Source: Verrucomicrobiota bacterium
GTDB lineage: Bacteria; Verrucomicrobiota; Verrucomicrobiia; Verrucomicrobiales; V1-33
Length of the DNA: 38,441 bases
Direction: 5' to 3'
Assembly: GCA_031414455.1 (NCBI GenBank)
Contig: JANNVM010000545.1
Location: 1-38,441 of the forward strand
The translations under genes were made by a program, and so were the position numbers. The notes below the pieces were generated by a model. It did not search any database, had not been told where the DNA came from, and saw nothing but the letters and a program-made list of their open reading frames with translations. This document shows positions 5,896-31,504 of this stretch, one piece after another. Each line of letters starts with the position of its first letter. Position 1 is the first letter of the stretch.

Positions 5896-6139
5896 GGGAT
5901 CGGTAGATAAAGGTGGGGTGCCGCAAAACCGGGGGCGCGGCGGGCTGGTTTCATAGTGGCCGGAGAGGGGAATGCAAGATGGGATCGGGGGTGGGATCGC
6001 TGGTGCAGGGTGCTCATTACCCCTGCTCTCTCAATCGGCGAAGGTTGTAGATTTCCTTCCATTCTCCACGGGTGCGGCTTCGCCCAGTCCGCGGCCCTGC
6101 ACGCGCCCGGCGGTGGCTCCAGTGATTTGCGCGATGTTC

Positions 6140-6379
6140 TTACATGGTCTGTGGGTCGCCGGTCATGGCTTCGGCGCAGCCGCTCCAGCGGTAGCTGCCA
6201 GGATCATCGGTCAGGCCGGCGCGCACGGGGTTGAGATCAATATAGGTGGCCATCGTGCGCAGAGCGTTTGCTTCATCCTGCACGCTCACACTTTTATAAC
6301 GCCCTTCCCGCAGCGTGCCGGTGCGCTCGTTACGGAGGTGCCACGGTCCAGCGACGGACGCGGCACTGGCGGCACCCAC
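6140..6379 (-). pseudogene. Internal fragment of an IS200-like / REP-associated (RayT-like) Y1 tyrosine transposase
   Basis: NERTGTLREGRYKSVSVQDEANALRTMATYIDLNPVRAGLTDDPGSYRWSG matches the family pattern (G.l.qGRfKS..v......l....YIhlNPVRAGLv..p..YrwSS). The HUH-containing N-terminal half has no room, because the sigma gene starts at 6452. The listed start is a GTG artefact. Confidence 0.6.
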
Positions 6380-6451
6380 GGATTCCCACCCCGGAATCCG
6401 CCCGCCGAACTTTTCCTGTCACCGGCGCGCGGGCCGGCGCATCTGTGTGGC

Positions 6452-9139
6452 ATGACGCCCTATTCTCTCTCCACTCCCGCCGCTGGCCTGCCGGATGCCG
6501 AGCTGGCGCGTGCGGCGCAGCGGGGGGAGAAGAAGGCGTTCGTGGAGATCGTGGCGCGGCATCAGGCGATGGTGTGCGGTATCGCGTTCGGGATTCTGAC
6601 GGACTTCGCGGCTAGCGAGGATGCGGCGCAAGACGCGTTCCTCACGGCGTGGCGGAAGATCCATCACCTGCGCGAGCCGGAGCTTCTGCGGGCGTGGCTG
6701 GGGCAGATCGCGCGGACGGCGGCGCTGGGCTACCGGCGCAGGCTGCACGGGGAGGTCGTGACGGATAATTTCGCGGAGGAGGCGGACCCCGCGCCACAGC
6801 CGGACGAGGCGGCGGCGGACGGCGATGAGGCGGCGCTGGTGCGCGATTCCCTGACAAAACTGCCAGAGCAGTTCCGCGTGCCGCTCGTGCTTTTCTACCG
6901 CGAGGGCCAGTCCGTCCGGAGCGTCGCGGAGGCGCTGGACCTGAGCGAGGACGCGGTGAAGCAGCGCCTGGCACGGGGCCGGGAAATGCTGCGTGAGCGC
7001 GTGACGGGGATGATCGAATCGGTGCTGACGCGCACGCGCCCCACGGCGGTTTTCACCATGCTGATCGCCGCGGCTATCGGCGCGCTGACGGCTCCGGCGG
7101 TCATCGCGGGGTCTGTCTTCACCGCGGCCGCCGCGGCATCGGCATCGGCGGCATCCGCTGCCTCCGCCAGCACCGCCGCGGGCGGAGCCACTTCCTCTGC
7201 AACCACAGTCGCCACAGCCATGAGTACCTCGAAATCCACCCTAACTATCGCCGCGGCCATCGCGGCGGCCTGCCTGCCGCTCGGCTACGGAGCGCGCATG
7301 GGCATGGAAACCCGCCCGCCGGATTCTGTCAGGAGGCCGGACGCGCAGTCGGCGGTCGCAGCCGCGAAAGCGCCCGCGAAGCCTGATTTCTCCGACTCCG
7401 CGCTCTATGCGGAGTGGAAGAAGCTGCACGACGAGCACGGCTCGACGGCGGAGGATATGCCGGCGCTCTTCCAGGCCATCGCGGACATCAAGGACCCGGT
7501 GCGGCGGCGTATTTTCCGCGCAGCGCAGAGCGCGGAGTGGGCGGAGCTTTCGCCGGAGGGGGGCTTCGCGTTCTTTATGGAAAAGGGGCGCGACAGCGGC
7601 CAGCGCGAGCAGTTTTTCAGCGAATGGATGCGGCGGGATCCGGCTGCCGCCGTGGCTGCGCTCTCTGGTGGCGGCGAGGGATGGGACGGGCTGGCGCGGA
7701 AGAACCTGACGGAGATCGCCCGGCGCGTGCCCGGGAGCCTCGCCTCGCTGGCTGCGAAGATGCCGAAGTCCGACAATCACTGGGCCAATGAAGTGCGCGA
7801 TGCCTTTGCCATCCTCGCGGAGAGCGGGCTGGAGGCTGCGCGCGCCGCGGCGGAGGGCGTGATTGGCCCCCAGCGCGAGCAGGCGCTGGCGGGGATCGCG
7901 AAGGCATGGGCGAGGACAGACCCGGACGCGGCCATCGCGTGGGCCAAAGCGCTCCCGGAGGGCGTGGACCTCCATAACATTATCCGCGCCGCGCTCCTGG
8001 GCGTGGCTGCCACTGCTCCGGCCTCGGCGCTGGGCCGGGTGAAGGACGTGCCGCCGGGCGGACGCGAAGGATATTTCGCCGATACCACCGGTGCCCGGGT
8101 GCTGCAGGAGGCGGGGAAAACCAACTACGACGCCACGGTGGCCTGGCTGGCCGCGCATCCCGAAAGCTTCAGTCGCGAGGACTTGCTAGGCATGGCAGAT
8201 GCCGTGACGCAGCGCCTGAATGACGACCCGGCGGCCTTCCTGGCACGGCACATGGCGGACGGCTCGCTGAGCGCGTTGATGCCTGCGATCGGCAGCGCAC
8301 TGATGAATCAGTCAGGCTATCAGCGTCCGGTCATTTGGGATTGGCTGAAGACACAGCCCTCGGACCCCGCGCTGGACCAACTTAGGAGCGAAATCATCAA
8401 CTCCGCGGGCTATCAGAATCCGGACTTTGCTCTCCAGATCGCGCGGGACCTGCCGGACACTCCGGAGGGCAAAAAATTCAGTGACTCGCTCGCCCGCAGC
8501 CTGATGAGTGCCTCGCAGATGCCGCACAATTTGGATTCCCTGATGGCGCAGGCTCCGGACACGCTGAAGCCAGCGCTGGTCGAGGCTGCGCTGATGGGGT
8601 TGAACCAAAAAAATTTCGCAGACCCGCAGAAGTGGCTGGCCTTGCTGCCGCAGTTGCGGGATGAGATCCGGGAAAACATGACCGCCCGCGTGGCCCGCGC
8701 ATGGACGGAGCAGGCCCCGGAGGAGGCCGTGGCGTGGGCCACCGCGCTGCCCCCGGGGGCGGAGCGCACTGCGGCGATCGGCTACGTGACCAACGCATGG
8801 GCAGTGGGCGATTCCTGGCGCGCGTCGGAATGGGTGGACACCCTGCCGGCTGGCGCGGAGCGGGACAAGGCAGCCGAATGGCTGGTGCAGGCCATCGCGC
8901 AGGAATCTCCAGACGAAGCATGGGACTGGGCGCAGAATATCGGCGACGAAACCCAGCGCAACTCGGCGATGCTGAACACCCTTCTGTCGATGCGGCGGCG
9001 GGACCCGTCGGCCATCGCTGACACGCTGGCCGGAGCCCGCATCACTCCTCAGGAACGCGCCGCCCTGCTGGAAAAACTGGACCAAATGCCCGTGGAGGCC
9101 ACCCCGCCACCAGCCACCGAAGCCACCCCTATCCGATGA
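6452..9139 (+). CDS. sig1: ECF sigma factor fused via hydrophobic/Ala-Ser-rich segment(s) to a ~600-aa Trp-repeat domain
   Basis: Sigma region 2 is AFVEIVARHQAMVCGIAFGIL..EDAAQDAFLTAWRK..LRAWLGQIARTAA. Region 4 is LPEQFRVPLVLFYREGQSVRSVAEALDLSEDAVKQRLARGREMLR. Next come PTAVFTMLIAAAIGALTAPAVIAG, an A/S low-complexity run and TLTIAAAIAAACLPLGY. Then repeats such as GIAKAWARTDPDAAIAWAKALPEG. The listed ORF begins at 5972, but sigma similarity starts right after ATG 6452. Confidence 0.85.
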   Translation: MTPYSLSTPAAGLPDAELARAAQRGEKKAFVEIVARHQAMVCGIAFGILTDFAASEDAAQDAFLTAWRKIHHLREPELLRAWLGQIARTAALGYRRRLHGEVVTDNFAEEADPAPQPDEAAADGDEAALVRDSLTKLPEQFRVPLVLFYREGQSVRSVAEALDLSEDAVKQRLARGREMLRERVTGMIESVLTRTRPTAVFTMLIAAAIGALTAPAVIAGSVFTAAAAASASAASAASASTAAGGATSSATTVATAMSTSKSTLTIAAAIAAACLPLGYGARMGMETRPPDSVRRPDAQSAVAAAKAPAKPDFSDSALYAEWKKLHDEHGSTAEDMPALFQAIADIKDPVRRRIFRAAQSAEWAELSPEGGFAFFMEKGRDSGQREQFFSEWMRRDPAAAVAALSGGGEGWDGLARKNLTEIARRVPGSLASLAAKMPKSDNHWANEVRDAFAILAESGLEAARAAAEGVIGPQREQALAGIAKAWARTDPDAAIAWAKALPEGVDLHNIIRAALLGVAATAPASALGRVKDVPPGGREGYFADTTGARVLQEAGKTNYDATVAWLAAHPESFSREDLLGMADAVTQRLNDDPAAFLARHMADGSLSALMPAIGSALMNQSGYQRPVIWDWLKTQPSDPALDQLRSEIINSAGYQNPDFALQIARDLPDTPEGKKFSDSLARSLMSASQMPHNLDSLMAQAPDTLKPALVEAALMGLNQKNFADPQKWLALLPQLRDEIRENMTARVARAWTEQAPEEAVAWATALPPGAERTAAIGYVTNAWAVGDSWRASEWVDTLPAGAERDKAAEWLVQAIAQESPDEAWDWAQNIGDETQRNSAMLNTLLSMRRRDPSAIADTLAGARITPQERAALLEKLDQMPVEATPPPATEATPIR

Positions 9140-10791
9140 AAACCAGCCGGCTTTATCTCATCGTCCTCGCTGTCTGCGGTCTCACTGCGGGTTTCGTCGT
9201 GCGCCGCATGCAGCACCCGCCAGCGGAGCCAATGCCTGACTTGTCAGGCATCTCTGAAGACCCTGCCGCCCCTGCCGCGCCAGGCCGTGCACAGCCTCAC
9301 GTCGCGTCCGCCCTGGCCGCAGAGCTGGAGCAGCAGCTCGCCATTTCCCCGGGTGTGAACCGCTGGCTGCTCTGGATGTCTGCTCTGGAAAAGGCAAAGC
9401 TCGCCGACCTGCCGCAGCTCGCCCGCATGGCGAAAGGCGACAGCGTCCTTCTGCGCATCATCGGCGCGCGCTGGATGGAGCTGGGGCCGCAGCATCTCTT
9501 CGACACCATCATCGCCGCCGATTCCGCCAGGCCGCGCGACACCGCGTTCCCCGGGGACCGGCTGGCTGACTATCTGTTTGAGGAATGGACCCGATCCGAT
9601 GCTTCTGCGGCGTTGGCCGCGCTCAACAGCAGCCCCGCCGACACCGGGTTTCTACAGAACATGCGTCATCAGGTGGTCAACGGCATCATCCAGAAGGACC
9701 CCGAGATGGGCCTCAAATGCCTGGCCGACTGGCATATTGATAACTACGGACCATCCATGGACGGCATCACGGCATGGGCAGAGAAGGACCCGCGCCACGC
9801 CGCCGAATTCGCCCTCGCCCATCCCGCGGGCTACGCCACGCAGACCGCGCTCGGGGCCATCGGCAAGGTCTGGGCCGCGCGCGATCCCGAGGCCGCCCTG
9901 ACATTCGCTGCTGGCATCAAAGACAAGTTCGGCACCGCCCTCGCCAACGGCATCGCCAAAGAGTGGGCCGCGAAAGACCTCACGAAAGCCGCCGCATGGC
10001 TCAGCGCGGCGGATCCATCCGTGCGCAGAATGCTGAGCGGCCCGGTTCTGGAGGAGTGGGCCAAAACCGACACCACCGGCGCGATGCAGTGGATCGAGGG
10101 CCACCTCGCCGGCGGCACCATGGATGAAGCAGTGGGTGCCGTGCTGGCCGGAGTGGCGGCCAGGGACGTGAGCGCCGCCGCGGCGCTCGTCAGCGGCATG
10201 GATGCCTCGCTCGCCCGCGCTCGCGCCGCCGTTTCCGTGGCCAAAAAGTGGATGCCATCGCATGGCAGCAACCAGCCGGTGTCTGCGGAAGCCGTGACAT
10301 GGCTCGGCACGCTCGACCCCGATTCCCTGAAGCACGTGCTCGGCGAAGTGCAGTGGCAGTGGTCCGGCAACGATCCCAAAGGCTACGCCGACTTTCTCAC
10401 CACCCCCGCCGGTGCCGCCGCACCGTCATACGCCCTCGCCACCGCCGCGCGCAGCATCGCCCGCGGCGATCCCCAGGCCGCTCTGAAATGGGCCGCCGAG
10501 GTTCAGTCCGCCCGCCGTCTCGAAGCGCTGGAAGGCGTGCTCCAAGAATGGAACAACTCCCAGCCCGCCGCCGCGCTCGACTGGGCAAAACAGCTCCCTG
10601 CCCGCGACCCCCGCCGCGAATCCTACTACACCGCCGTCCTCGAACAGTTCGCCACCCACGAAACTGCCAGCACCGCCGCCAAAGCCCTCGCCTCCGGCAA
10701 CCCCGAAGCCGCCCGCAAAGCACTCAATGGACAGCAGTTACCGCCCGAAGCGCGCGCGAAACTCGACGCCTGGCTGACGAAAGTGCAGTAG
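9136..10791 (+). CDS. par1: signal-anchored Trp-repeat protein partnered with sig1
   Basis: ATGA overlap with the sig1 stop. N-terminal anchor MKTSRLYLIVLAVCGLTAGFVV. Repeats include IGKVWAARDPEAALTFAAGI, IAKEWAAKDLTKAAAWLSAA, VLEEWAKTDTTGAMQWIEGH and VLQEWNNSQPAAALDWAKQLPARDPRRE. Confidence 0.8.
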   Translation: MKTSRLYLIVLAVCGLTAGFVVRRMQHPPAEPMPDLSGISEDPAAPAAPGRAQPHVASALAAELEQQLAISPGVNRWLLWMSALEKAKLADLPQLARMAKGDSVLLRIIGARWMELGPQHLFDTIIAADSARPRDTAFPGDRLADYLFEEWTRSDASAALAALNSSPADTGFLQNMRHQVVNGIIQKDPEMGLKCLADWHIDNYGPSMDGITAWAEKDPRHAAEFALAHPAGYATQTALGAIGKVWAARDPEAALTFAAGIKDKFGTALANGIAKEWAAKDLTKAAAWLSAADPSVRRMLSGPVLEEWAKTDTTGAMQWIEGHLAGGTMDEAVGAVLAGVAARDVSAAAALVSGMDASLARARAAVSVAKKWMPSHGSNQPVSAEAVTWLGTLDPDSLKHVLGEVQWQWSGNDPKGYADFLTTPAGAAAPSYALATAARSIARGDPQAALKWAAEVQSARRLEALEGVLQEWNNSQPAAALDWAKQLPARDPRRESYYTAVLEQFATHETASTAAKALASGNPEAARKALNGQQLPPEARAKLDAWLTKVQ

Positions 10792-10799
10792 AATTGTCC

Positions 10800-10837
10800 G
10801 TCACACTTTTCGGCCGGCGGAGGTTCACTTAATAAAG
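10800..10837 (+). promoter_or_regulatory. Module leader motif, copy A (immediately upstream of sig2a)
   Basis: GTCACACTTTTCGGCCGGCGGAGGTTCACTTAATAAAG followed by ATG. The GTCACAYTTTTC block ends 26 nt before the start codon. Function unknown. Confidence 0.5.
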
Positions 10838-12865
10838 ATGACCACGCACGACGACACCACACTGCTGAATGCCTGGATCCGCGAAGGCTCGGATGAGTCC
10901 TTCGGGGTGCTGGCGCGGCGTTATGCCGGCCTGCTTTTTCATGCCGGGCTGCGGCGGACAGGGAGCCCGGAACTGGCGCAGGAGGCGGCCCAGAATGCGC
11001 TGGCCATTTTGGCCCGGAAGGCAGCGCGCGTGTCCGCCACGCCCAGTCTCGCTCCATGGTTGCACCGCACTGTCAGTTATGAAGCCGCCACGCTCCTCCG
11101 TCGTGAGCGACGCCACGAAGCCCGTATGAAAACCTATATTCCCCCGGATGACAGCCCGGATCCGTGGGCCAGGGCCGCCCCCATTCTCGATGCGGCACTC
11201 AATGACCTGCCAGAGCAAGACCGCCGCGTGCTTCTCATGAAGTATGTGGATGGCTGGACCTTTGAGCAAATGTCAGAACGGCTGGGCGGACAATCCGCCA
11301 CCTGGCGGAAGCGCGGGTCGCGTGCCGTGGAGCAGTTGCGGCGTGCCTTTGCCAGGAAAGGCGTTGCCCTGCCCGGCGCGGTCATCGCTGCGGGACTGCA
11401 TGACGTTCTTACCCAACCCGCACCCGCAGCCATCACGGCAGTCCTCGCCACCGGACCTCTCACCGCTGCCGGCGGACTCTCATGGAAAACGCTCACCCTG
11501 CACACCCTCTACATTATGAAAGTCAAACAAACCGCTATCGCGCTGGGCATCGTGCTCGCAGCGCTTATTCCGCTCGGCCTGCAATATTTCTCCAATGCTG
11601 CCGCCCGCACGCGAGTGGCCGACCTGACAACCTCCGTGCGAGCCATGCGCGCCAATGCTGGACCTGCATCGGACGGGACCGCACGCCGCGAGGCCCGCTC
11701 CGCTCCAGCGACAGCCTCAAGCAAAACAGGCGTGCCGGACGGCATTGACCTGGTCGCATGGGCAGAACTCCTGAGCAAACGCGAGCCGACCAGCACCGCC
11801 GAGATGGCGAAAATGCTCAGCGTTCGAAATACCATCGGCTCGCTTGATGCCGATGCCCTGGAGGGACTGATCCTGGCAGCAGAAAAGCTGGATCTGCCAC
11901 CCGCCAAGCGCAGCGGGCTGATCATCGCTCTGCTTTCACCCCTCACGTTGAAAGCACCAGCCACGGCCCTCAAAATCTCTGTGCGTATGGCAGCGACGGC
12001 CTCAGCAGAAGACAGTTTACCCCTGAGTTTCCAAGCGGGAGCGGCCATCGGACTCTGGGTCTCCAAAGAACCGGAAGCGGCCGAAGCATGGTTCGCCAAA
12101 GCCAAAACAGACGGTGCCTTTGAATCCAGACAGCTTTCCAACATGATGAGCCTGGAGAGCACCCTGCAGCAGCATCGCATCGCTGGTCTGTTGAGGTCCC
12201 GTCCTGATATCGCGGAAAAGGAAATCACCCTGGTCCCCCCGCAGGATGCAGCCAACGCGCTCAGCCTGGCCGTGAAGACCCTCGATCCGGCGCTCGTGCT
12301 GCGGATGGCCAAACTTCTCCCGCCGGGCTACCAGGCCAATGCGGTCGCCGGTGCCGTGAGACACCTGGCGGACACTGACCCCGCTGCCGCAGCGCAATTG
12401 GCGAGATCCATCGATGCGAATGATGATGGCAAACGTGCCCTGCTGGCCGGTGTGGCATCGTCCATCGCCAGAACGGACGAAGGCAAAACTGACTGGACAC
12501 AAGTGAAAGCTCAGGCTGCCTGGTTGCGCCACGAGGCCCCTCAGGGCCAGGCGGAAGAGGCGGTCGGCTTATTCCTCGCCATGCAGGGGCAACAAGACCT
12601 GGCCCGTGCCATGGAGGCCTATCAGCAGGAAATCGCCGCGCAATCCCCGACCGATCCGGTGCTCACCAGTTCCTTTGCCAGAAACCTCGGAATGACCGGA
12701 AAGGCCCAGTTCAAAGCAGCGATGGATCTCGTGGAGGCCATGCCCGCAGGCGCGGAGCGGGAGCGTGCCCTCACCGAACTTGGCGAGTCCCGCTGGTCGG
12801 GGCAGAAGCGAACGCGCGTGATCACGTCCGGGCGCCAAACTCCAGACCCCGCTTCCAAACCATGA
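10838..12865 (+). CDS. sig2a: membrane-tethered ECF sigma fusion
   Basis: Region 2 is FGVLARRYAGLLFHAGLRRTGSPELAQEAAQNALAILARKAA..PWLHRTVSYEAATLLRRERR. Region 4 is LPEQDRRVLLMKYVDGWTFEQMSERLGGQSATWRKRGSRAVEQLRRAF. The TM segment is TAIALGIVLAALIPLGLQYF. The C-terminal domain is about 420 aa, with AAIGLWVSKEPEAAEAWFAKA and VRHLADTDPAAAAQLARSI. Confidence 0.9.
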   Translation: MTTHDDTTLLNAWIREGSDESFGVLARRYAGLLFHAGLRRTGSPELAQEAAQNALAILARKAARVSATPSLAPWLHRTVSYEAATLLRRERRHEARMKTYIPPDDSPDPWARAAPILDAALNDLPEQDRRVLLMKYVDGWTFEQMSERLGGQSATWRKRGSRAVEQLRRAFARKGVALPGAVIAAGLHDVLTQPAPAAITAVLATGPLTAAGGLSWKTLTLHTLYIMKVKQTAIALGIVLAALIPLGLQYFSNAAARTRVADLTTSVRAMRANAGPASDGTARREARSAPATASSKTGVPDGIDLVAWAELLSKREPTSTAEMAKMLSVRNTIGSLDADALEGLILAAEKLDLPPAKRSGLIIALLSPLTLKAPATALKISVRMAATASAEDSLPLSFQAGAAIGLWVSKEPEAAEAWFAKAKTDGAFESRQLSNMMSLESTLQQHRIAGLLRSRPDIAEKEITLVPPQDAANALSLAVKTLDPALVLRMAKLLPPGYQANAVAGAVRHLADTDPAAAAQLARSIDANDDGKRALLAGVASSIARTDEGKTDWTQVKAQAAWLRHEAPQGQAEEAVGLFLAMQGQQDLARAMEAYQQEIAAQSPTDPVLTSSFARNLGMTGKAQFKAAMDLVEAMPAGAERERALTELGESRWSGQKRTRVITSGRQTPDPASKP

Positions 12866-14181
12866 ACCGTCGCCACCTCACTTTTGTTCTGCTGGTCGTT
12901 GCCTCTGCCGCACTTTTCCAATGGTGGCAAAGCACGCAGATCCTCGCCGCTGAAACCAATCTGCGCACCGAACTTGCCAGGCTCAAAGAGCAGAAAGAGC
13001 CGCCGCCAGTCCCTTCCGATCCCGCTGCTCCTGCTGCTGCAAACACCACACCTCCAGAGCCCGAAAAATTTGATCCGGATAAACTGGTCTCTGACTTCAT
13101 GGCACTCGTCCCCCTGATCCGTGACGCCAGAAACAAGGCCCCGGCATCAACGGGCGACCTTGAGCAAAGGGCCATGGTGATCATGGCGCAGATCTCCACC
13201 GCCCCGCCAGCACTGCTGAAGCAGGCCTTCGAAAAACTGATGAGTTCCGCCCTCCCCGACGACATCAAAAACGAAACCAGTCAGGCATTGTTGCTTCGCC
13301 TGGCGGAAACTGACCCGGCGTGGGCGGTCGCGCAAACCGTGAAAATGGCGGACCATCCACATATTCTCCGAAGTATCCTCAAGGTCTGGGCGACGAAAGA
13401 CGCCGCTGCGGCCACCGCATGGATCGAGACCGCCGTCAAGGATGGCAGTCTCGCTGGATTCGACAAAGGCCTCGTCAGATACGACGACGGCGGCCTCGTC
13501 AAATCGCTGAGATATGACGTCGCTGCGGCTCAGGCTGCGGCAGATCCCATGACCGCACTGAATGAACTGCCCGGACTCAGTCCCGAAGAGCAACGTCAAG
13601 CCGTGACGAGCATGGCCTCATCTCTGAAAACCGCTGATCAGCGTCGGGCCGCACTCGAACGTATTGGCGGCGGAGACCAACCGACAGATAAACACTTTCA
13701 GACGCTGCAGCACTTCGCCAAAGCCCTCGGCGAAAACGTCGGCTTTGAGGCCAGTCGCGAAGCCCTGGAGTCAGCAAAACTATCGCCCCACATGCACGAT
13801 GCCACCGCCGCCATCCTCGCCGCCACCGGCATCGGACCCGAGACCGCGGCCCGCGCCAATTGGTTATTGGAAAACCGCCGCACCACCGAACCCGAAGCCC
13901 TCCAGGGCTTCGTTCAAACGTGGACCAAGGCCGACTACAACGGAGCCGCCACCTGGCTGCGCGACCTCCCGCCGAGCACGAACCGCGATGCCGCGATAGC
14001 CGCCTTCGCACCTCTCGTCGCTCAAAAAGAGCCCCCCTCCGCCGTAGATTGGGCCATCACCATCACCGACCCCGCGCAACGCACGACCGCTCTGAACCAA
14101 GTCTGGAAGAACTGGAAAGCCCACGCCCCGGAGGAAGCCGCCTCCTATTTCCGCGAGAAGGGGCTGCCCAGCCCGGAGTGA
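12862..14181 (+). CDS. par2a: signal-anchored Trp-repeat partner of sig2a
   Basis: ATGA overlap with sig2a. The N-terminus is MNRRHLTFVLLVVASAALFQWW, with only about 5 residues before the TM. Repeats include LKVWATKDAAAATAWIETAV, FVQTWTKADYNGAATWLRDLPPSTNRDAAIAAF and LNQVWKNWKAHAPEEAASYF. Confidence 0.85.
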   Translation: MNRRHLTFVLLVVASAALFQWWQSTQILAAETNLRTELARLKEQKEPPPVPSDPAAPAAANTTPPEPEKFDPDKLVSDFMALVPLIRDARNKAPASTGDLEQRAMVIMAQISTAPPALLKQAFEKLMSSALPDDIKNETSQALLLRLAETDPAWAVAQTVKMADHPHILRSILKVWATKDAAAATAWIETAVKDGSLAGFDKGLVRYDDGGLVKSLRYDVAAAQAAADPMTALNELPGLSPEEQRQAVTSMASSLKTADQRRAALERIGGGDQPTDKHFQTLQHFAKALGENVGFEASREALESAKLSPHMHDATAAILAATGIGPETAARANWLLENRRTTEPEALQGFVQTWTKADYNGAATWLRDLPPSTNRDAAIAAFAPLVAQKEPPSAVDWAITITDPAQRTTALNQVWKNWKAHAPEEAASYFREKGLPSPE

Positions 14182-14258
14182 GTCAACGCCTCGCCCACCG
14201 AAACGGGAATGGGGGAATTTCATCCACAACCGAAGCAGCACGGAGCTAAAACTTTTTC
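14182..14258 (+). repeat. Conserved post-partner element, copy 1
   Basis: Contains the 36-nt block CCACCGAAACGGGAATGGGGGAATTTCATCCACAAC (14195-14230), identical to 21364-21399. It is followed by GAAGCAGCACGGAGC and AAAACTTTT, also shared. A partial leader-like CTTTTCGCGGGTGGCGTTCAC follows at about 14272-14292. Confidence 0.7.
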
Positions 14259-14505
14259 TGAAAGGAATTTTCTTTTCGCGGGTGGCGTTCACTGGCGGGA
14301 CGGGGACCGGGGAGAGAGGGGGTCTGGCGGCTTTGGCGGTGGGAAAGCAGACAATATTTTTAGCCCACCACGCTGAACGCGATTCGCGGAACCCTTCGTT
14401 GCAAGAATCACTAGCATTCCTCGTCTGGTTTTCCCTAATTTGAGCGCGCTCCACGGCATGTGTTCCTGGCCTCCGTAAAGATTTTCGAAAAATTGCTTCC
14501 CCCAT

Positions 14506-14541
14506 GTCACATTTTTCCAGTGAGATTGGGTTTATAGAGAG
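14506..14541 (+). promoter_or_regulatory. Module leader motif, copy D (upstream of sig3)
   Basis: GTCACATTTTTCCAGTGAGATTGGGTTTATAGAGAG followed by ATG. The GTCACAYTTTTC block ends 24 nt before the start. Confidence 0.45.
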
Positions 14542-16707: not shown

Positions 16708-16734
16708 GAAGGCCCGCTGGCATCGGTCGCAACG

Positions 16735-17010
16735 ATGGCTATTTGCCAGTCTTGGCGGCTCCAGGGAGGCCGGACCCTGGAGATCCTCCGCGAAGGCTAT
16801 AGCAAAACCACCGAGACCCGCCTCACCGGACCGAACCCAGAAGCCGCCCACGAAGCACTGAATTGAAAGCAGTTAACACCCGAAGCGCGCGCGAAACTCG
16901 ACGCCTGGCTGAAGAAAGTTCAGTAGAAATCTGCGTCACACTTTTCCCTCGGTGGCGGTTTTATTTACGGAACGACTACGACGCCATGAGACACTGCCGA
17001 ACTGAACGTG
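16735..17010 (+). pseudogene. Decayed copy of the par1-tail / leader / sig2-start junction
   Basis: The frame reads ..LEILREGYSKTTETRLTGPNPEAAHEALN*KQLTPEARAKLDAWLKKVQ*. The par1 C-terminus reads ..VLEQFATHETASTAAKALASGNPEAARKALNGQQLPPEARAKLDAWLTKVQ*. The in-frame TGA is at 16864-16866. Leader copy B follows at 16935. After it, by-eye similarity to sig2 codons continues (ACGACG..ACACTGC[C/T]GAA..TGCCT) but is out of frame with stops. Confidence 0.6.
16935..16970 (+). promoter_or_regulatory. Module leader motif, copy B (orphan, no intact sigma gene behind it)
   Basis: GTCACACTTTTCCCTCGGTGGCGGTTTTATTTACGG aligns with copy A through GTCACACTTTTC and CGG[C/T]GG[A/C]GGTT. Confidence 0.5.
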
Positions 17011-17115
17011 CCTCCGTCAGGAAAACCCGTCCCGGAGTATCACGAATCAAAGACTTCTCCGGTTTTCTCCGCAACTGGGGAGTAATCTTTCAAGGATCAG
17101 CACTACCCAAACATT

Positions 17116-18075
17116 ATGAAAACAAAACTGCACCACTGGCTATCGGCCATTCTTCTCACCCTCACTGCTGGCCAAGGCCAGGCCGCTACCATCCAACTCG
17201 TCATTCCCAACGCAGGCTTCGAAGAACAGGGCAACGTCCTGGATGGTGATGGCGACAGCATTCCGCTGGCCCAGGATCCGGCTGACTTTGCGGCCAATCG
17301 CGTGCCGGGCTGGTTCCCGACTGGCGACGACGCTGATGTTGGTCCGTCGGTGGGCATTTTTAATCCCATGGGCAGCGGGGCTCAGGGATTCACCACCACC
17401 ACGGCCCATAGCGGCAATCTCGTCCTGCGGGTGGCCGATGAAGACGGTGCGTATGCTCCCATCAGGACAACGGATGGTGCGGCGTTCCTGCTGGGTATAG
17501 GCGACGTTATCACGGTCACAGGCTGGATCGTTCAAGGGAGTGGAATCGACGCGGACATTCGCTTTGAGCTTTACCGCCTGGACGCCCTGCCAGGCTTAAG
17601 CAATATAATTCACCGTGAAGACAGCCATGTCAGAGGGGTGAAAGGCCCGGAATGGGTTCCCTTTTCCCTGACCTTTAGTGTCGATGAAGCCAACGCGCCC
17701 TATGCCGGTGCCCCGTTAGGCTTTGGGTTCGACAGCGAATCAGGGATGCTGCTGGATGACCTTTCCATCTCGGTGGAGCGAATTCCGGAGCCCGGCTCCG
17801 TGGCGCTGGCTGCTACCGGCCTGCTGTGGCTGAATGTCCGCCGGCGGCGCGCTGCACCGGCAGGGTGCGACCGCCAACGCCTGTGGACGCCGGTCCAGGT
17901 GGCTGGAACTCAGGCGTCCCGCCTGTGCTGGCCAGCGGTCATCATGACCGCTGAAAGCAATGGCCTGCCAATGAACAGCGTGGGGGGGCGTAATGCCGCC
18001 GTTCGAATGTGGATCATTCCGGTCACGCTTTTCCATCGGCGGCGGTGTAATAATAAAGATGACCACGCACGATGA
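17116..18075 (+). CDS. PEP-CTERM-anchored secreted protein, with an anomalous ~74-codon extension after the anchor
   Basis: Signal peptide MKTKLHHWLSAILLTLTAGQGQA/AT. The PEP motif is at 17785-17793 (IPEPGSVALAATGLLWLNVRRRR), with RRRR ending at 17850. The frame stays open to 18075 and overlaps the sig2b start by 17 nt. Confidence 0.75.
   Translation: MKTKLHHWLSAILLTLTAGQGQAATIQLVIPNAGFEEQGNVLDGDGDSIPLAQDPADFAANRVPGWFPTGDDADVGPSVGIFNPMGSGAQGFTTTTAHSGNLVLRVADEDGAYAPIRTTDGAAFLLGIGDVITVTGWIVQGSGIDADIRFELYRLDALPGLSNIIHREDSHVRGVKGPEWVPFSLTFSVDEANAPYAGAPLGFGFDSESGMLLDDLSISVERIPEPGSVALAATGLLWLNVRRRRAAPAGCDRQRLWTPVQVAGTQASRLCWPAVIMTAESNGLPMNSVGGRNAAVRMWIIPVTLFHRRRCNNKDDHAR
18022..18058 (+). promoter_or_regulatory. 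Module leader motif, copy C (upstream of sig2b)
   Basis: GTCACGCTTTTCCATCGGCGGCGGTGTAATAATAAAG followed by ATG. The block ends 25 nt before the start, and TAATAAAGATGACCACGCACGA is shared with copy A. Confidence 0.5.
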
Positions 18076-20056
18076 CACTTCCCTGCTGAACGCCTGGATC
18101 CGCGATGGCTCCGATGAGGCCTTCGGGGTGCTGGCGCGACGTTATGCCGGCCTGCTTTTTCATGCCGGGCTGCGGCAGACGGGCAGCCCGGAACTGGCAC
18201 AGGAGGCGGCTCAGAATGCGCTGGCCATCCTGGCCCGGAAGGCAGCGCGTGTTTCCGCCACGCCCAGTCTCGCTCCATGGTTGCACCGCACTGTCAGTTA
18301 TGAAGCCGCCACGCTCCTCCGTCGTGAGCGACGCCACGAAGCTCGTATGAAAACGTATCGTCCCCCTGATGACAGCCCGGATCCGTGGGCCAGGGCTGCC
18401 CCCATGCTCGATGCGGCTCTGAATGACCTGCCCAAGCCCGACCGCTGCGTCCTGCTCATGAAGTATGTGGACGGATGGACCTTTGAGCAAATGTCGGAAC
18501 GGCTGGGCGGAGAGTCGGCCACCTGGCGGAAGCGGGGATCGCGTGCCGTGGAGCGATTGCGGCGGATTTTTGCCAGGAAAGGAGTGGTGCTTTCCACCAC
18601 GATCATTTCCGCCGGGGTCAATGCCGCGCTCACCCAGACCGCCCCTGCAGCCGTCACCACAACTCTAGCCGCAGCATCACTTACGACTGCCGCAAGCCTT
18701 TCCTGGAAAACCCTCACCTTGCACACCCTCTATGTTATGAAAATAAAAAAAACCGCGATCACCCTCGGCATCGTTCTGGCGGCCCTCATCCCGCTGGGCC
18801 TGCAATATCTTAGCAATGCCGGGGATCGAGCCCGGGTGGCGGCATTGAAGACGTCCGTGGAGGCTGTGCGCACCTCTGTGGGGCCAGCATCGGACGGGAT
18901 CGCACGCAGCGGTGGCCGCTCCGCCCCGAAACCAGGCTCGGGCGGCACTGCCGCCGCGGAGGGCATCGATCTGGCCGCATGGGCCGATTTACTGAGCAAA
19001 CGGGAACCAGGCAGCGCTGCCGAAATGGCGAAAATGCTCAGCGTGCGAAACACCATCGGTTCCCTGGATGCCGATGCCCTGGAGGGCTTGATACTCGCAG
19101 CCGAACAAATGGAGCTGCCCCCTGCCAAGCGCATGGGGCTGATCACGGCATTTCTTTCGCAGCTGACGCTTAAAGCACCGGCCTCAGCAGTCCAGATCGC
19201 TGTGCGTCTGGCTACGGCGGCCACAGGCGAAAGCAATATGAACCTATTTTTCCAGGCCGGTGCGGCCATGGGAATCTGGGTAACCAAGGACCCGGAAGCC
19301 GCAGAAGCGTGGTTCGCCAAAGCCAAAGCAGACGGTGCCTTTGAAACAAAGCAACTTTCCAACATGATGAGCCTGGAGGGCACCCTCCAGCAGCATCGCA
19401 TCGCCGGGCTTTTGAGAACCCGCCCTGATCTGGCAGAAAAGGAAATTCAACTCATCGCCCCGCAAGATGCAGCCAATGCGCTTAGCCTGGCAGTGAAAAG
19501 CCTTGATCCAGCGCTTGTCCTCCGTCTGGCCAAACTGCTTCCTCCGGCCCATCAGCCCGCAGCGATGGCGGGTGCGGTGAGGCATCTGGCGGATACTGAC
19601 CCCACTGCCGCTGCCCAATTGGCAAAATCCATTGATGGCAGCGACAGTGATAAACGCGGCCTGCTAGTGGACATCGCCACGTCGATGACCATGGGAAGAT
19701 CCGAAGCCAAACCTGACTTGCAAAAGGTGAAAACCCAAAGCGCCTGGTTGCGGAAGGAGGCCCCGGAAGGCCATGGCGAAAAGGCAGTCGGCACCTATCT
19801 CGCAGGCCTGGGCCGCTATGATTTGTCGCGCGCCATGGAAGCGTATCGACTGGAAACTGACGGTCAATCATCGCCCGATCCGGTGCTGACCGGTGCCTTT
19901 GTCAGAGTCCTCGGCATGACAGGTCCGGCCCACTTCAAAGAAGCCAAACTGCTCGCCGAAGCCATGCCCGCTGGCGAGGAACGCGATCGAGCCTTCCGTG
20001 AATTCGAAAAACTTGCCTGGGCCAAGCAGTCCCCATCCCCCAAGCCAAAGCCATGA
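18059..20056 (+). CDS. sig2b: paralogue of sig2a (membrane-tethered ECF sigma fusion)
   Basis: Starts MTTHDDTSLLNAWIRDGSDEAFGVLARRYAGLLFHAGLRQTGSPELAQEAAQNALAILARKAARVSATPSLAPWLHRTVSYEAATLLRRERRHEARMKTY, nearly identical to sig2a. The TM segment is TAITLGIVLAALIPLGLQYL. The listed ORF start at 17993 is an upstream in-frame extension; ATG 18059 matches sig2a. Confidence 0.9.
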   Translation: MTTHDDTSLLNAWIRDGSDEAFGVLARRYAGLLFHAGLRQTGSPELAQEAAQNALAILARKAARVSATPSLAPWLHRTVSYEAATLLRRERRHEARMKTYRPPDDSPDPWARAAPMLDAALNDLPKPDRCVLLMKYVDGWTFEQMSERLGGESATWRKRGSRAVERLRRIFARKGVVLSTTIISAGVNAALTQTAPAAVTTTLAAASLTTAASLSWKTLTLHTLYVMKIKKTAITLGIVLAALIPLGLQYLSNAGDRARVAALKTSVEAVRTSVGPASDGIARSGGRSAPKPGSGGTAAAEGIDLAAWADLLSKREPGSAAEMAKMLSVRNTIGSLDADALEGLILAAEQMELPPAKRMGLITAFLSQLTLKAPASAVQIAVRLATAATGESNMNLFFQAGAAMGIWVTKDPEAAEAWFAKAKADGAFETKQLSNMMSLEGTLQQHRIAGLLRTRPDLAEKEIQLIAPQDAANALSLAVKSLDPALVLRLAKLLPPAHQPAAMAGAVRHLADTDPTAAAQLAKSIDGSDSDKRGLLVDIATSMTMGRSEAKPDLQKVKTQSAWLRKEAPEGHGEKAVGTYLAGLGRYDLSRAMEAYRLETDGQSSPDPVLTGAFVRVLGMTGPAHFKEAKLLAEAMPAGEERDRAFREFEKLAWAKQSPSPKPKP

Positions 20057-21348
20057 ACCGCCGTCTCATCACGCCCTTTCTTTTACTGGTTGCTGCTGCC
20101 GCCCTTTTCCAGTGGTGGCAACGAACCCGGATTCTGACCAGCGAAACCGAACTCCGAGCCGAGCTGGGCCAACTCAAAGACCTGAGAGCCCAGTCGCCCG
20201 CCGCACCCGTTCGCCCCGTCGGACCTGCTGCCAACTCCTCGCTACAAAAGGCCGAAACCTTTGATCCGGACAAATTTGTAGAGGAGTTCCTCGCACTGGT
20301 CCCGCTACTGCGGGACGCCAGGACCCAGGCCCCAGCGGAAACAAGTGACCTTCAACAACGGGCTTTGGCACTCATCAGTCAAATCGGCACCGCCCCTCCT
20401 GCTCTGGTGAAACAGGCTTACGAAAAAATGATGAAATCATCCCTGCCCGATGAGGGGAAAGAGGAACTCAGTCAGCCCTTCCTCCTCCGCCTCGCGGAAA
20501 CAGAGCCCGCCTGGGCCGCTGCCCAATGCGTCAAAATGGTGAAGTTCCCACACATTCTCCGGAACCTGATCGAAGTCTGGGCAGCCCAGGACGCCGGTGC
20601 AGCCAAAGCGTGGATCGAAACCGCCGTGAAGGAAGGCAGCCTCGCCGGATACGAAGCAAACATCGTCGAAATCCTGATGAACAATGTGGCATCGGCCCAA
20701 GCTTCCAGCGATCCCATGACCGCCTTGAAGGAACTGCCCGGGCTCAGTCCCGAAGGCCAACGCCAGTCCGTCACCAAAATGGCCGGTTCCCTGAAAACCA
20801 CCGATGAACGCCGTGCTGCCCTCGAACGCATCGCTGGTGGTGATCAGGTGACCGATCAGAATTTCCTGACGCTTCGGCACTTTGCCAATGCCCTCGGCGA
20901 AAACGCCGGCTTCGACGCCGGCCGTGCAGCCCTCGATGCCGCAAAACTATCCCCCCACATGCACGACGCTACCGCCGCCATCATCGCCGCCACTGGCATC
21001 GGCCCCGAGACCGCAGCCCGCGCCAATTGGTTATTGGAAAACCGCCGCACCGCCGAACCCGAAGCTCTCGAGGGTTTCATTCAAACGTGGACCAAAGCAG
21101 ACTACAACGGAGCCGCCACCTGGCTGAGTGACCTCCCTCCCAGCGCCAGCCGCGACACCGCCGTAGCTGCCTTCGCACCTCTCGTCGCTCAAAAAGAGCC
21201 CCCCTCCGCCGTAGATTGGGCCATCACTATCACCGACCCCGCGCAACGCACGACCGCTCTGAACCAAGTCTGGAAGGACTGGAAAGCCCACGCCCCGGAG
21301 GAAGCCGCCTCCTATTTCCGCGAGAAGGGGCTGCCCAGCCCGGAATGA
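20053..21348 (+). CDS. par2b: paralogue of par2a
   Basis: ATGA overlap with sig2b. The N-terminus is MNRRLITPFLLLVAAAALFQWW. The last 58 residues differ from par2a at one position (N/D). Confidence 0.85.
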   Translation: MNRRLITPFLLLVAAAALFQWWQRTRILTSETELRAELGQLKDLRAQSPAAPVRPVGPAANSSLQKAETFDPDKFVEEFLALVPLLRDARTQAPAETSDLQQRALALISQIGTAPPALVKQAYEKMMKSSLPDEGKEELSQPFLLRLAETEPAWAAAQCVKMVKFPHILRNLIEVWAAQDAGAAKAWIETAVKEGSLAGYEANIVEILMNNVASAQASSDPMTALKELPGLSPEGQRQSVTKMAGSLKTTDERRAALERIAGGDQVTDQNFLTLRHFANALGENAGFDAGRAALDAAKLSPHMHDATAAIIAATGIGPETAARANWLLENRRTAEPEALEGFIQTWTKADYNGAATWLSDLPPSASRDTAVAAFAPLVAQKEPPSAVDWAITITDPAQRTTALNQVWKDWKAHAPEEAASYFREKGLPSPE

Positions 21349-21427
21349 GTCCACCGCCGTCCGCCACCGAAACGGGAATGGGGGAATTTCATCCACAACG
21401 GAAGCAGCACGGAGCAAAAACTTTTCC
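21349..21427 (+). repeat. Conserved post-partner element, copy 2 (ends 38 nt before sig4 start)
   Basis: Shares the 36-nt identical block and flanking matches with 14182-14258. Confidence 0.7.
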
Positions 21428-21465
21428 GGTTTTTCCGCCAGCCGGGGGATACTCTGTGAACACCG

Positions 21466-23235: not shown

Positions 23236-23254
23236 AACCCACACCTTCGCAACC

Positions 23255-23461
23255 ATGAAACTTCATTCCAAATACTTCCTGCCCGCAGCAATGATAATGC
23301 TTTCCGCTTCTGCCGCTCAGGCCGACTCCCATGTCCACACGTATGTCTTCACCGAATCCGTTGCGCAGACGCTGCGCAGCATTGGCATCAGTTTTGTCGC
23401 TGGGTGCACCGTGTTCGCTCTGGGCATCGTGGCTGCGGCTGTTGTTTTGAAGAAAAAGTGA
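23255..23461 (+). CDS. Small bitopic membrane protein (68 aa) between sig4 and par4
   Basis: Signal-like N-terminus MKLHSKYFLPAAMIMLSASAAQA/DS. The C-terminal TM is ISFVAGCTVFALGIVAAAVVL, followed by KKK. It fits exactly in the gap, 19 nt after the sig4 stop and 11 nt before the par4 ATG. No homology recognised. Confidence 0.5.
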   Translation: MKLHSKYFLPAAMIMLSASAAQADSHVHTYVFTESVAQTLRSIGISFVAGCTVFALGIVAAAVVLKKK

Positions 23462-23472
23462 GTCACAGGCAC

Positions 23473-24720
23473 ATGAAGCCAGTCCCATTTCTCAGCATCA
23501 CCCTCCTCCTCGCCGCCACCGGTGCCTGGACTGGCTATCGTCTGGCACCCCGACCGCTCAATCCGCCGCCGTCGCCACCCGGAGCCGCAGTTTCCAGTTT
23601 GCCAGTTTCTGAAATGCTGCCGGAACTTGTCAGAACGCCATCTGAACTCGAAGACCTCGTGAGGCGTTTCCTTTCCGCACGAGCCACTGACGAGGCGCTC
23701 GCCCTGTCTCTGCACAAGCAAATCCTGGCCACTGACAGCTCCCTGCTGAAACGAACCTGGGAAGAGCTGGCGGGCCGCAGCAAGGACCTCGAAGCCGGCG
23801 ATGTGCGCCATGTGCTCACCACTCTGCGCTTTGCTCTCGCAGAGCAGGATCCCATGGGGACCATCCAGTGGCTCGCCAGGAAATCCCCTCCTGATCAACT
23901 ACGGAATCAACTCTGGATGATGCTGGAAGACTGGAGCGTCCGCGATCCGATAGCTGCCTGGGAAGGTATGATCGCCGATACGATTGCCCCCAGCGTGCGG
24001 GATGAACTCTACAATGCCTTCACGACAATCTGCGCCAACTACGCGAAGCAAGATCCCGCTGCGGCCTTCGCGGCCTTCCTGAAATTACCCCCCGACCACT
24101 GGCTCAATGACTACGCTGCCGCGATGCTCTGCCGCGATGCGGCCACGCCCGCGCGTCGCATGGAAATGCTGCAACAGTTGGTGCAACAACCGCCGGGACG
24201 CCTGCGCACCGCCGGCCTGAATTCCATCCTGGCCTTTCAAACCCAAAATCAGTCGTTGGAAAAGACCGGCACCTGGCTACTGCAACAGCCTCTGCCCGAA
24301 GCAGAAAAGGATTCTCTCATCGCCGCCGTAGCTGCCTCTGCCGCACCGGATGATCCCCGCGCTGCCCTCACATGGCTGATGGCCAACTCCCGTCCGGAAG
24401 CCGCCATGGCATCCATGGAAAGACTCACCGAAGAGTGGGCCAGCGCTTCCCCTAACGACTGTGGCGAATGGCTCAAAACCCTGCCGCCCGGCCCCTCTAC
24501 CGATGGAGCTCTCTTCGCCTTTGTGGAAGAAGTCATGCAGCACGATCCCGAAAGCGCCTTCCTCTGGACCCGTCAGTTCGACCTCCCCGCCCGCCGTGAA
24601 GCCCGCGCCAAAGCCGTCTGGGAAAAGTGGGTCTCCAACGCCCCAGTCTCAGCCGCTCGTTTCGCCGGGCAATTTGATGCCCGGGAACGCGAATGGCTGA
24701 ACCTGCCCGTGGCCCCATGA
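23473..24720 (+). CDS. par4: signal-anchored Trp-repeat partner of sig4
   Basis: The N-terminus is MKPVPFLSITLLLAATGAWTGY. Repeats include MLEDWSVRDPIAAWEGM, ICANYAKQDPAAAFAAFLKLPP, LTEEWASASPNDCGEWLKTLPPGPSTDGALFAF and VWEKWVSNAPVSAARFAGQF. The listed start at 23404 overlaps the 68-aa ORF; ATG 23473 is preferred. Confidence 0.8.
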   Translation: MKPVPFLSITLLLAATGAWTGYRLAPRPLNPPPSPPGAAVSSLPVSEMLPELVRTPSELEDLVRRFLSARATDEALALSLHKQILATDSSLLKRTWEELAGRSKDLEAGDVRHVLTTLRFALAEQDPMGTIQWLARKSPPDQLRNQLWMMLEDWSVRDPIAAWEGMIADTIAPSVRDELYNAFTTICANYAKQDPAAAFAAFLKLPPDHWLNDYAAAMLCRDAATPARRMEMLQQLVQQPPGRLRTAGLNSILAFQTQNQSLEKTGTWLLQQPLPEAEKDSLIAAVAASAAPDDPRAALTWLMANSRPEAAMASMERLTEEWASASPNDCGEWLKTLPPGPSTDGALFAFVEEVMQHDPESAFLWTRQFDLPARREARAKAVWEKWVSNAPVSAARFAGQFDAREREWLNLPVAP

Positions 24721-24752: not shown

Positions 24753-24786
24753 GTCACACATTGCCCCCGGCGGAGGTCAAAATCAT
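24753..24786 (+). promoter_or_regulatory. Module leader motif, copy E (orphan, downstream of par4)
   Basis: GTCACACATTGCCCCCGGCGGAGGTCAAAATCAT shares GTCACAC (7/7) and CGGCGGAGGT (10/10) with copy A. No intact sigma ORF follows. Confidence 0.45.
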
Positions 24787-31420: not shown

Positions 31421-31504
31421 GGGAGTGTTCCCTGCGCCAATCTAATGGACAGACAGGCCGACCCGCATCAGGATGCCGGACCTCCATTCATTCCCCTCCC
31501 CAAG

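Follow-up and report, generated by a model that had tools for sequence, protein, structure and literature searches.

How is an extracytoplasmic function (ECF) sigma factor held in check where no canonical anti-sigma gene accompanies it? The question is raised by a stretch of Verrucomicrobiota DNA (contig JANNVM010000545.1 of assembly GCA_031414455.1, positions 1 to 38,441), called here the window at its whole length of 38,441 nucleotides (nt), with a G+C content of ~56–69%. Nine genes of the + strand stand in a row at 6452–24720, of which five encode ECF sigma fusion proteins (S1 to S5) and four encode their partners (P1, P2, P4 and P5); L-numbers denote the related loci compared. Such a block is far more than chance would bring together, and it holds a segmental duplication of 3.47 kb. 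We hold it probable, with room left for doubt, that the block consists of ECF sigma/anti-sigma hybrid modules arrayed in tandem, for which we propose release of the sigma domain by proteolysis. Domain architecture, homologies, the conserved adjacency of S and P and the history of duplication are shown by the analysis; for membrane topology, heteromerisation of S with P, proteolytic release and a promoter function we rely on inference. The features are given below, with protein lengths in amino acids (aa) and transmembrane segments abbreviated TM.

6452–9139, + strand: S1, ECF sigma domain, linker, hydrophobic segments and solenoid tail of ~615 aa; 895 aa
9136–10791, + strand: P1, signal-anchored solenoid partner of S1, with ATGA overlap; 551 aa
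10800–10837, + strand: leader motif 5′ of S2; further copies at 14506 (S3), 16935 (relic), 18022 (S4) and 24753 (orphan)
10800–14256, + strand: duplication unit of leader, S2, P2 and ~75 nt; second copy at 18022–21425
10838–12865, + strand: S2, sigma domain 1–178, linker 179–228, TM 229–252 (PLG motif), juxtamembrane helix, disordered linker, solenoid 305–650
12862–14181, + strand: P2, signal-anchored solenoid partner of S2, with ATGA overlap; 439 aa
14542–16707, + strand: S3, ECF sigma domain, S2-like linker and TM, HEAT_2-type tail, no partner; 721 aa
16801–16960, + strand: relic 3′ of S3, the final 41 codons of a P1-like gene and an S2-type leader
18059–20056, + strand: S4, recent duplicate of S2; 665 aa
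20053–21348, + strand: P4, recent duplicate of P2, with ATGA overlap; 431 aa
21466–23235, + strand: S5, ECF sigma domain, linker, weak TM 235–253 (GGG motif), solenoid tail; 589 aa
23473–24720, + strand: P5, signal-anchored solenoid partner, 237 nt from S5; 415 aa

Sigma domains, membrane segment and origin of the tail

In the first ~185 residues of all five S proteins, Sigma70_r2 and Sigma70_r4_2 score above their Pfam gathering cut-offs (42.4 and 35.4 bits in S1); the sigma regions 2 and 4 that the original prediction had recognised in the five genes are in this way confirmed by hidden Markov models (HMMs). Pfam gave no match to sigma region 1 or region 3 in the five proteins. S1 (76.3 bits), S2, S3 and S5 also exceed the cut-off of TIGR02937, which models the ECF superfamily, and S4, which is 73% identical to S2, scores 39.6, under the cut-off of 42.9. 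Moreover, the N-terminus of the S2 structural model resembles the ECF sigma factors SigL, SigH, AlgU, SigK, SigW and RpoE in Foldseek. As judged from their sequences, the five S proteins are ECF (group 4) sigma-70 factors. None of them reached the cut-off of a curated ECF subfamily model; TIGR02989, which describes an ECF subfamily of Rhodopirellula and Verrucomicrobium and has a cut-off of 124.55, gave 82.9 bits for S1, 31.0 for S2, 47.1 for S3, 28.6 for S4 and 36.0 for S5. A long open reading frame (ORF) runs into S1 from an ATG at 5972, and its first part (5972–6451) appears to be a high-GC over-extension; sigma homology begins at ~6494 and the orthologue in L006 favours a start near 6452.

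A canonical anti-sigma factor, whether of the zinc-binding (ZAS) or the FecR-like type, had been reported as missing, and our motif and Pfam scans of the nine S and P proteins likewise found none. All nine lack HxxxCxxC and CxxC motifs, and there is no Pfam match to FecR, DUF4974, SnoaL or TPR in S or P proteins, none to zf-HC2 in the same proteins or in the S linkers, and none to an anti-sigma or FecR domain in the S linkers even at E<=10. What follows the sigma domain in each S protein is a hydrophobic segment, lying between residues ~197 and 278, and then a large C-terminal domain, an arrangement that the original prediction had described and that was found in all five, with all-helical tails of 335–615 aa. 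Across 25 members of the S2 family, hydropathy points to a single TM in 25/25, the TM 19-mer averaging 1.96 vs 1.31 for the linker. The linker of ~50 aa is itself strongly conserved in this family (RGVxVSxAALAxGL...APAAV...LSWKTLTLHSLHLMKxK).

The membrane segments carry a further signature. P[LIM][GS] is present in 25/25 TMs of the fused S2 family, S1 has a PLG-type TM at ~263–281 (LPLGYG), the TM of S5 bears GGG, and GGG, GGS or GAG is found in the TMs of 9/9 unfused anti-sigma relatives, which are described below; among partner TMs, only 10/88 have PxG or GG. Helix-destabilising residues of this kind are typical determinants of site-2 protease substrates. From an alignment of 25 sequences, AlphaFold2 (AF2) gave a model of S2 whose mean predicted local distance difference test score (pLDDT) is 79.7, near 90 in the tail. 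In this model, short linker helices at 180–226, of low to moderate confidence, are followed by one long helix (229–273) that comprises the TM and the juxtamembrane part, a disordered stretch (274–300) and an all-alpha domain (305–650). Foldseek matched the S2 tail weakly to HEAT/ARM solenoids (karyopherins, CAND1, PP2A), and it returned no specific solved relative of the S2 tail or of P2, only generic HEAT/ARM/PPR solenoids.

The origin of the tail is indicated by relatives in which the sigma factor and a probable anti-sigma are separate. At L016/L017, L018/L019 and L020, an unfused three-gene module encodes a stand-alone ECF sigma factor of 176–181 aa, a middle protein of 452–597 aa, whose gene has an ATGA overlap with the sigma gene, and a member of the partner family. 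Searched against Pfam, the N-termini of the middle proteins matched DUF4880 in 6/8 cases (best E 7.6e-5), zf-HC2 in 3/8 and RskA_N in 1/8; since the sole bit score reported (16.8, member 1) does not reach the gathering cut-off of DUF4880 (25), these anti-sigma-domain matches are convergent, not conclusive. A PDB sequence search with the middle-protein N-terminus gave noise only. Residues 220–647 of S2 align to the TM and periplasmic part of the middle proteins (hhalign probability 99.94%, E 1.4e-36). A remnant of the anti-sigma domain in the fused linker was also considered and rejected (hhalign probability 0.4%; no Pfam match at E<=10).

Because their TM and tail are homologous to the unfused anti-sigma, with no trace of its N-terminal domain, the S proteins are, as far as homology can tell, sigma/anti-sigma hybrids in which a covalent link stands in place of the sigma-binding domain. 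The original suggestion, that its tail keeps the sigma factor at the membrane and that the sigma factor would have to be freed by proteolysis or act while tethered, agrees with all that could be examined, including one TM after the sigma domain and the homology of TM and tail to the equivalent parts of a probable anti-sigma. What had been missed is that the tail is by its alignments anti-sigma-derived and that unfused relatives exist; we are not dealing with a sigma factor that carries an unrelated extension. Right before the TM of the unfused anti-sigma relatives (L016 3570–4928 and homologues) there is an invariant juxtamembrane motif, RLARAAAWLGAFTWFGNKAQAA, which is without counterpart in the fused family, where LSWKTLTLHSLHLMKxK is conserved instead.

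The partner proteins, their pairing with S and the growth of the array

The partners start with 3–6 residues and continue with a hydrophobic N-terminal segment, close to the five or so residues first estimated. The idea that the partner could itself be the anti-sigma was ruled out, because just these 3–6 residues precede its anchor. The AF2 model of P2 (pLDDT 82.5) consists of a helix (3–44), a disordered stretch (45–67) and an all-alpha domain (72–432), which is the layout of S2 after its sigma domain (TM helix, disordered spacer, solenoid), and in both models the spacer after the TM is Pro/Ala-rich. Over its entire length the P solenoid aligns as a homologue of the S2 tail (hhalign probability 98.7%, E 1.6e-16), and the partner is, on this alignment, a paralogue of the S tail; being signal-anchored as well, it would share the compartment of the tail, as the original prediction had proposed for a co-sensor or decoy. 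P1, which has a TM at 3–25 (Kyte–Doolittle hydropathy, KD, 1.96) and no Pfam match, is 26% identical to the S1 tail over 296 aa, and the S1 tail matches the partner and tail HMMs weakly. The S5 tail scores 31.6 bits with the partner HMM and 23 bits with the tail HMM, and P5 scores 89 bits with the partner HMM. The tails of S1 and S5, together with P1 and P5, form one superfamily with the S2 tail and P2. The repeat type that tails and partners had been said to share does not extend to S3, which has sigma domain, linker and TM in common with S2 (37% identity over residues 1–300 only) but carries an unrelated tail, matching Pfam HEAT_2 (28.3 bits) and neither the tail HMM nor the partner HMM.

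The pairing of four S genes with a following partner gene holds for P1, P2 and P4, whose ATGA overlaps at 9136, 12862 and 20053 can be read directly from the sequence just as first reported; S5 and P5 are not directly adjacent, a 237-nt spacer lying between them. The start of P5 is the ATG at 23473, which gives a family-typical N-terminus, MKPVPFLSITLLLAATGAW, matching the partner-family pattern, and the ORF from a GTG at 23404 is an over-extension. Between S5 and P5 there is a 68-aa ORF (23255–23461) with a signal-peptide-like N-terminus (…SASAAQA/DS), a hydrophobic C-terminal segment and KKK at its end; relatives of it were not found in the related loci compared.

A profile search shows how large the partner family is, with 8,059 clusters at E<=1e-3, 2,585 at <=1e-10 and 105 at <=1e-30. 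Its members are mostly 420–450 aa long and the family has no Pfam model. Among the 105 full-length representatives, 101 have a short basic N-terminus and a hydrophobic anchor, and in the 40 inspected more closely the anchor is followed by a W/Q interface and then a heptad-like helix. The C-terminal 80 aa of partners are nearly invariant (WT.ADYNGAATWL...EPPSAVDWA.TI.DP). Sigma domains were found in only 2/21 of the longer partner relatives.

The adjacency of S and P was conserved in every related Verrucomicrobiota locus where it could be examined. Starting from S, the loci L001, L002, L004 and L005, which hold distant S2 homologues in otherwise unrelated gene contexts, have after S a same-strand gene without Pfam match that was confirmed as a member of the partner family. 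Starting from P, and judged in Verrucomicrobiota loci with enough upstream sequence, an S-type or contig-truncated tail-bearing gene lies directly 5′ in L006, L008–L014, L022 and L025. All genome matches are to metagenome-assembled genomes (MAGs) of Verrucomicrobiota or Verrucomicrobiales. A near-identical MAG contig (L025) keeps the order P1-S2-P2, and the more distant L006 has an S2-like, a P2-like and then an S1-like gene, the last being an S1 orthologue at 54% identity. By these comparisons, fused and unfused modules alike include P as their conserved third member. At least two tandem sigma modules are also present in L011 (3572–12777), L020 (5459–8960) and L006 (1422–6884), and L011 includes one tail-bearing ORF of 533 aa without a sigma domain.

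In addition, tandem pairs of signal-anchored tail-type and partner-type proteins without any sigma gene were found in L024 (3752–8902) and probably in L015 (1–4921). The existence of such pairs suggests that the paralogous tail/partner pair is the ancestral core of the system. In both arrays, tail-type and partner-type proteins alternate without sigma or anti-sigma domain; the end of the contig cuts the first tail-bearing ORF of L015.

Within the window, the leader, S2, P2 and ~75 nt recur as S4/P4 with 76.7% nucleotide identity over 3467 nt (blastn), and the duplicated proteins are 73% (S4–S2) and 71% (P4–P2) identical. In the region 3′ of S3, residues 511–551 of P1 match 16801–16923 at 63% identity (tblastn) and a relic of 127 nt (16834–16960) matches 10699–10825 at 86% identity (blastn). 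Standing behind an unpartnered S gene, this relic suggests a lost partner gene or a duplication junction. To judge from these alignments, the array was built up by recent segmental duplication in tandem, in the course of which tails were exchanged and parts decayed.

Since decay is present in the array, with a partner relic and an unpartnered S3, it may be asked whether the fusions themselves are artefacts or decaying pseudogenes, a sigma and an anti-sigma gene having been joined through a frameshift, a faulty assembly or the loss of a stop codon. We find this scarcely credible. The S2 homologues form ~25 full-length clusters of 654–727 aa, down to 35% identity, from independent assemblies and all with sigma domains (at source they are annotated only as “sigma-70 family” or “hypothetical”). 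The linker is conserved, the sigma domains exceed the family cut-offs, and the anti-sigma domain is cleanly absent, unlike what simple read-through would leave.

Proposed release of the sigma domain

A bipartite leader, GTCACAC-N8-10-GGCGG(R)GG, lies 30–45 nt 5′ of S2, S3 and S4 and at the same distance from S2-family genes in L001, L002, L004, L005, L009 and L010. The window contains 4 copies of GTCACAYWY where 1.06 are expected, a number that 0/100 shuffles reach. The leader is compatible with a putative, autoregulated ECF-type −10 (GTC) element together with a Shine-Dalgarno sequence; a sigma-70 promoter and terminator scan was uninformative. A gene for a protein with a PEP-CTERM sorting signal (17116–18075) sits between the leader copies at 16935 and 18022. 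It looks as if it had been inserted into, or recombined between, leaders, and it may be driven by the upstream copy, hence being a candidate regulon member. An orphan leader, GTCACACAttgcccccGGCGGAGG, is found at 24753–24776, 33 nt past the P5 stop, with no sigma gene after it; it lies 327 nt 5′ of a gene for a secreted alpha/beta-hydrolase with an SHD1-like domain (25080–26048).

In the mechanism that we propose, S would run from a cytoplasmic sigma domain through a ~50-aa linker, one TM, a juxtamembrane helix and a disordered spacer to a periplasmic HEAT/ARM-like solenoid, the part from the TM onward deriving from a membrane anti-sigma without its cytoplasmic sigma-binding domain. With that domain lost, the covalent tether would replace non-covalent sequestration. 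P, translationally coupled to S, would begin with ~5 cytoplasmic residues and a signal anchor, followed by a juxtamembrane helix, a spacer and a solenoid. Together the two proteins may form a heteromer, in the periplasm and the membrane, by which a cue from the envelope or from outside the cell is sensed. This cue would expose S to a site-1 protease, after which a site-2 intramembrane protease could cut the helix-destabilised TM. A sigma fragment of ~20–25 kDa would then be freed, bind RNA polymerase (RNAP) and activate its own leader promoter and target genes. P might act as the gate of site-1 cleavage or as a co-receptor, in the way RseB acts for RseA or the TonB-dependent transducer for IutY. 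Given its coupling to S, its predicted presence in the same compartment, its paralogy to the tail and its near-invariant C-terminal patch, P is most readily understood as a co-sensor within a heteromer or as the element that gates site-1 cleavage, with homology to neither RseB nor IutA. Regulated proteolytic release of the sigma domain appears most likely by analogy, because the architecture equals that of IutY, and the helix-destabilising motifs of the TMs are in support.

Several observations weigh against this scheme. The leader yielded no definable −35 element, GAAA-like elements occurring at variable spacing. The conservation of the linker exceeds what a passive tether needs, so that it could have an autoinhibitory or RNAP-related role. 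Furthermore, the S/P modules have no linked gene for a site-1 or site-2 protease (L001, L002, L004 and L005 loci). This would suit a sigma factor that is active while tethered, full-length S recruiting RNAP to membrane-proximal DNA in the manner of ToxR or CadC, with conformation or S–P association as the switch. The ~50-aa conserved linker between sigma region 4 and the TM fits signal transmission, and the fusions have no anti-sigma domain that would inhibit the sigma factor. We nevertheless regard tethered activity as unlikely, as a sigma factor must cycle on and off core RNAP, and the sigma-bearing TMs have conserved helix-destabilising motifs which partner TMs mostly lack. Moreover, IutY, the only characterised protein of such an architecture, needs cleavage by Prc and RseP (PMC5411451), and a membrane-tethered active sigma factor is not described in the reviews PMC8999054 and PMC8103513.

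The sigma-less tail/partner pairs of L024 and L015 also count against the scheme, in that the primary function of the pair may not be signalling. Perhaps the pair is a structural or scaffolding module of the envelope, and the fusion ties the abundance or turnover of the sigma factor to the state of assembly. The very large partner family (8,059 clusters), the scarcity of sigma domains among its 21 long relatives and the fact that solenoids are typical protein-protein scaffolds all favour this explanation. Against it, the same tail is found on a probable anti-sigma beside a stand-alone ECF sigma factor, a standard signalling arrangement. We think a purely structural role improbable, and it overlaps with the proposed sensing mechanism, since monitoring the state of assembly is itself sensing.

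The topology has its own weak points. S1 has an extra Ala-rich, strongly hydrophobic stretch of 33 residues (197–229; window 7040–7138; KD 2.19), followed by a Ser/Ala/Thr-rich low-complexity run, and because of this stretch its topology is less certain and may differ from that of the S2 family. The TM of S5 is weak (KD 1.63). In another reading, the hydrophobic segment does not span the membrane and the tail regulates from within the cytoplasm, like the extensions of ECF41 or ECF42. The weak S5 segment and the possibility that S1 has an even number of membrane segments speak for it; helical-repeat extensions of cytoplasmic ECFs are known, such as the TPR of ECF42 (PMC7826278). A cytoplasmic tail is nonetheless highly unlikely in view of the mean TM hydropathy of 1.96 with a TM in all 25 S2-family members, the homology of segment and tail to the membrane and periplasmic parts of a probable anti-sigma, the clear signal anchor in 101/105 partner representatives and the Pro/Ala-rich disordered spacer that follows the TM in S2 and P2.

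The array is flanked by housekeeping genes, namely those for an FGGY kinase, a class-V aminotransferase, a TsaB-like protein, an AlgX-like protein and a glycogen debranching enzyme, and by a gene that is, from inspection of its sequence, likely to encode glycogen synthase. At 31445–34870 there is a gene for a predicted secreted protein of 1,141 aa, Ala/Gly/Thr-rich and without a Pfam match.

Relation to known sigma factor systems

The S/P finding leaves accepted principles of ECF regulation unchanged. Sigma/anti-sigma hybrids have very few studied cases, IutY having been termed “unique” at its first description, and the S family adds an independent, multi-copy case of the hybrid design from a poorly studied phylum. 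As unfused and sigma-less relatives are known, the path from a canonical three-part module to a one-protein sensor-regulator can be traced. In a wider and more tentative view, which we offer with more doubt than confidence, the tail/partner solenoid pair would be an undescribed, widespread periplasmic sensing module of Verrucomicrobiota. It would exist in three states (sigma-less; with separate sigma and anti-sigma; fused to sigma after loss of the anti-sigma domain), and P would be the obligate gate of the proteolysis of its paralogue. If true, the fused state shows that covalent tethering alone can replace anti-sigma binding. Moreover, a large unannotated family of signal-anchored solenoids is flagged as likely signalling partners, and self-contained, orthogonal membrane-to-transcription modules are of practical interest for synthetic circuits.

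In the RpoE-RseA-RseB system, the genes are ordered as sigma factor, membrane anti-sigma and, immediately 3′ of it, periplasmic accessory protein; the accessory protein binds or gates the anti-sigma ectodomain, and the sigma factor is governed by regulated intramembrane proteolysis. The order sigma, anti-sigma, accessory is shared with the unfused Verrucomicrobial modules, whereas in the window sigma and anti-sigma are fused in one protein and the sigma-binding domain is gone. RseB is soluble and of an unrelated fold, while P is membrane-anchored and paralogous to the anti-sigma ectodomain.

The closest architecture is that of IutY from Pseudomonas putida (ECF243), in which cleavage by Prc (site-1) and RseP (site-2) frees a sigma fragment of ~23 kDa (PMC5411451; reviewed in PMC8999054). 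In IutY as in the S proteins, one chain carries an ECF sigma domain on the cytosolic side, a single TM and a periplasmic part derived from an anti-sigma; neither has a separate cytoplasmic anti-sigma domain, and IutY needs a second envelope protein for signal input. The periplasmic domain of IutY is however of FecR type, and that of the S proteins is a HEAT/ARM-like solenoid without FecR match. The partner of IutY is a TonB-dependent outer-membrane transducer, whereas here it is an inner-membrane-anchored paralogue of the tail; no TonB-dependent receptor gene was found in the window flanks or in the L001, L002, L004 and L005 loci. Unlike IutY, the modules belong to a Verrucomicrobiota lineage and are tandemly amplified, and their cleavage is proposed by analogy.

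Membrane-spanning fused ECFs are in fact known from several groups, namely IutY/ECF243, ECF48/52/53, ECF263 and ECF220 (flanked at +1 and −1 by TM proteins), and C-terminally extended ECFs are well established, the 2021 classification having 19 groups of them (PMC7826278). ECF48/52/53 of Actinobacteria (e.g. SCO4117) resemble the S proteins in having a C-terminal extension with a TM and an extracytoplasmic domain and in their predicted proteolytic activation (PMC5826349, PMC8999054). They keep, however, a ZAS-like zinc-finger domain between sigma and TM, where the S proteins are without HxxxCxxC or zf-HC2; their ectodomains are proline-rich or carbohydrate-binding, and a conserved paralogous partner is not described for them. 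ECF41 and ECF42 have soluble SnoaL-like or TPR extensions, unlike S, which has a TM segment and no SnoaL or TPR match. Planctomycetal ECFs of the ECF57 type, also from the Planctomycetes-Verrucomicrobia-Chlamydiae (PVC) superphylum, are similar in their multi-copy paralogues and long C-terminal extensions, and the main texts on them make no mention of a paralogous partner conserved at +1 (PMC7671368, PMC7826278). The exchange of tails between S3 and S2 resembles the exchange of extensions after ECF duplication in Planctomycetes (PMC7671368). No description of the S/P fusion-partner family was found in the searchable literature, and the S family is set apart from the systems above by the absence of an anti-sigma domain or zinc finger, by its solenoid ectodomain, by its paralogous inner-membrane partner and by its unfused and sigma-less relatives.

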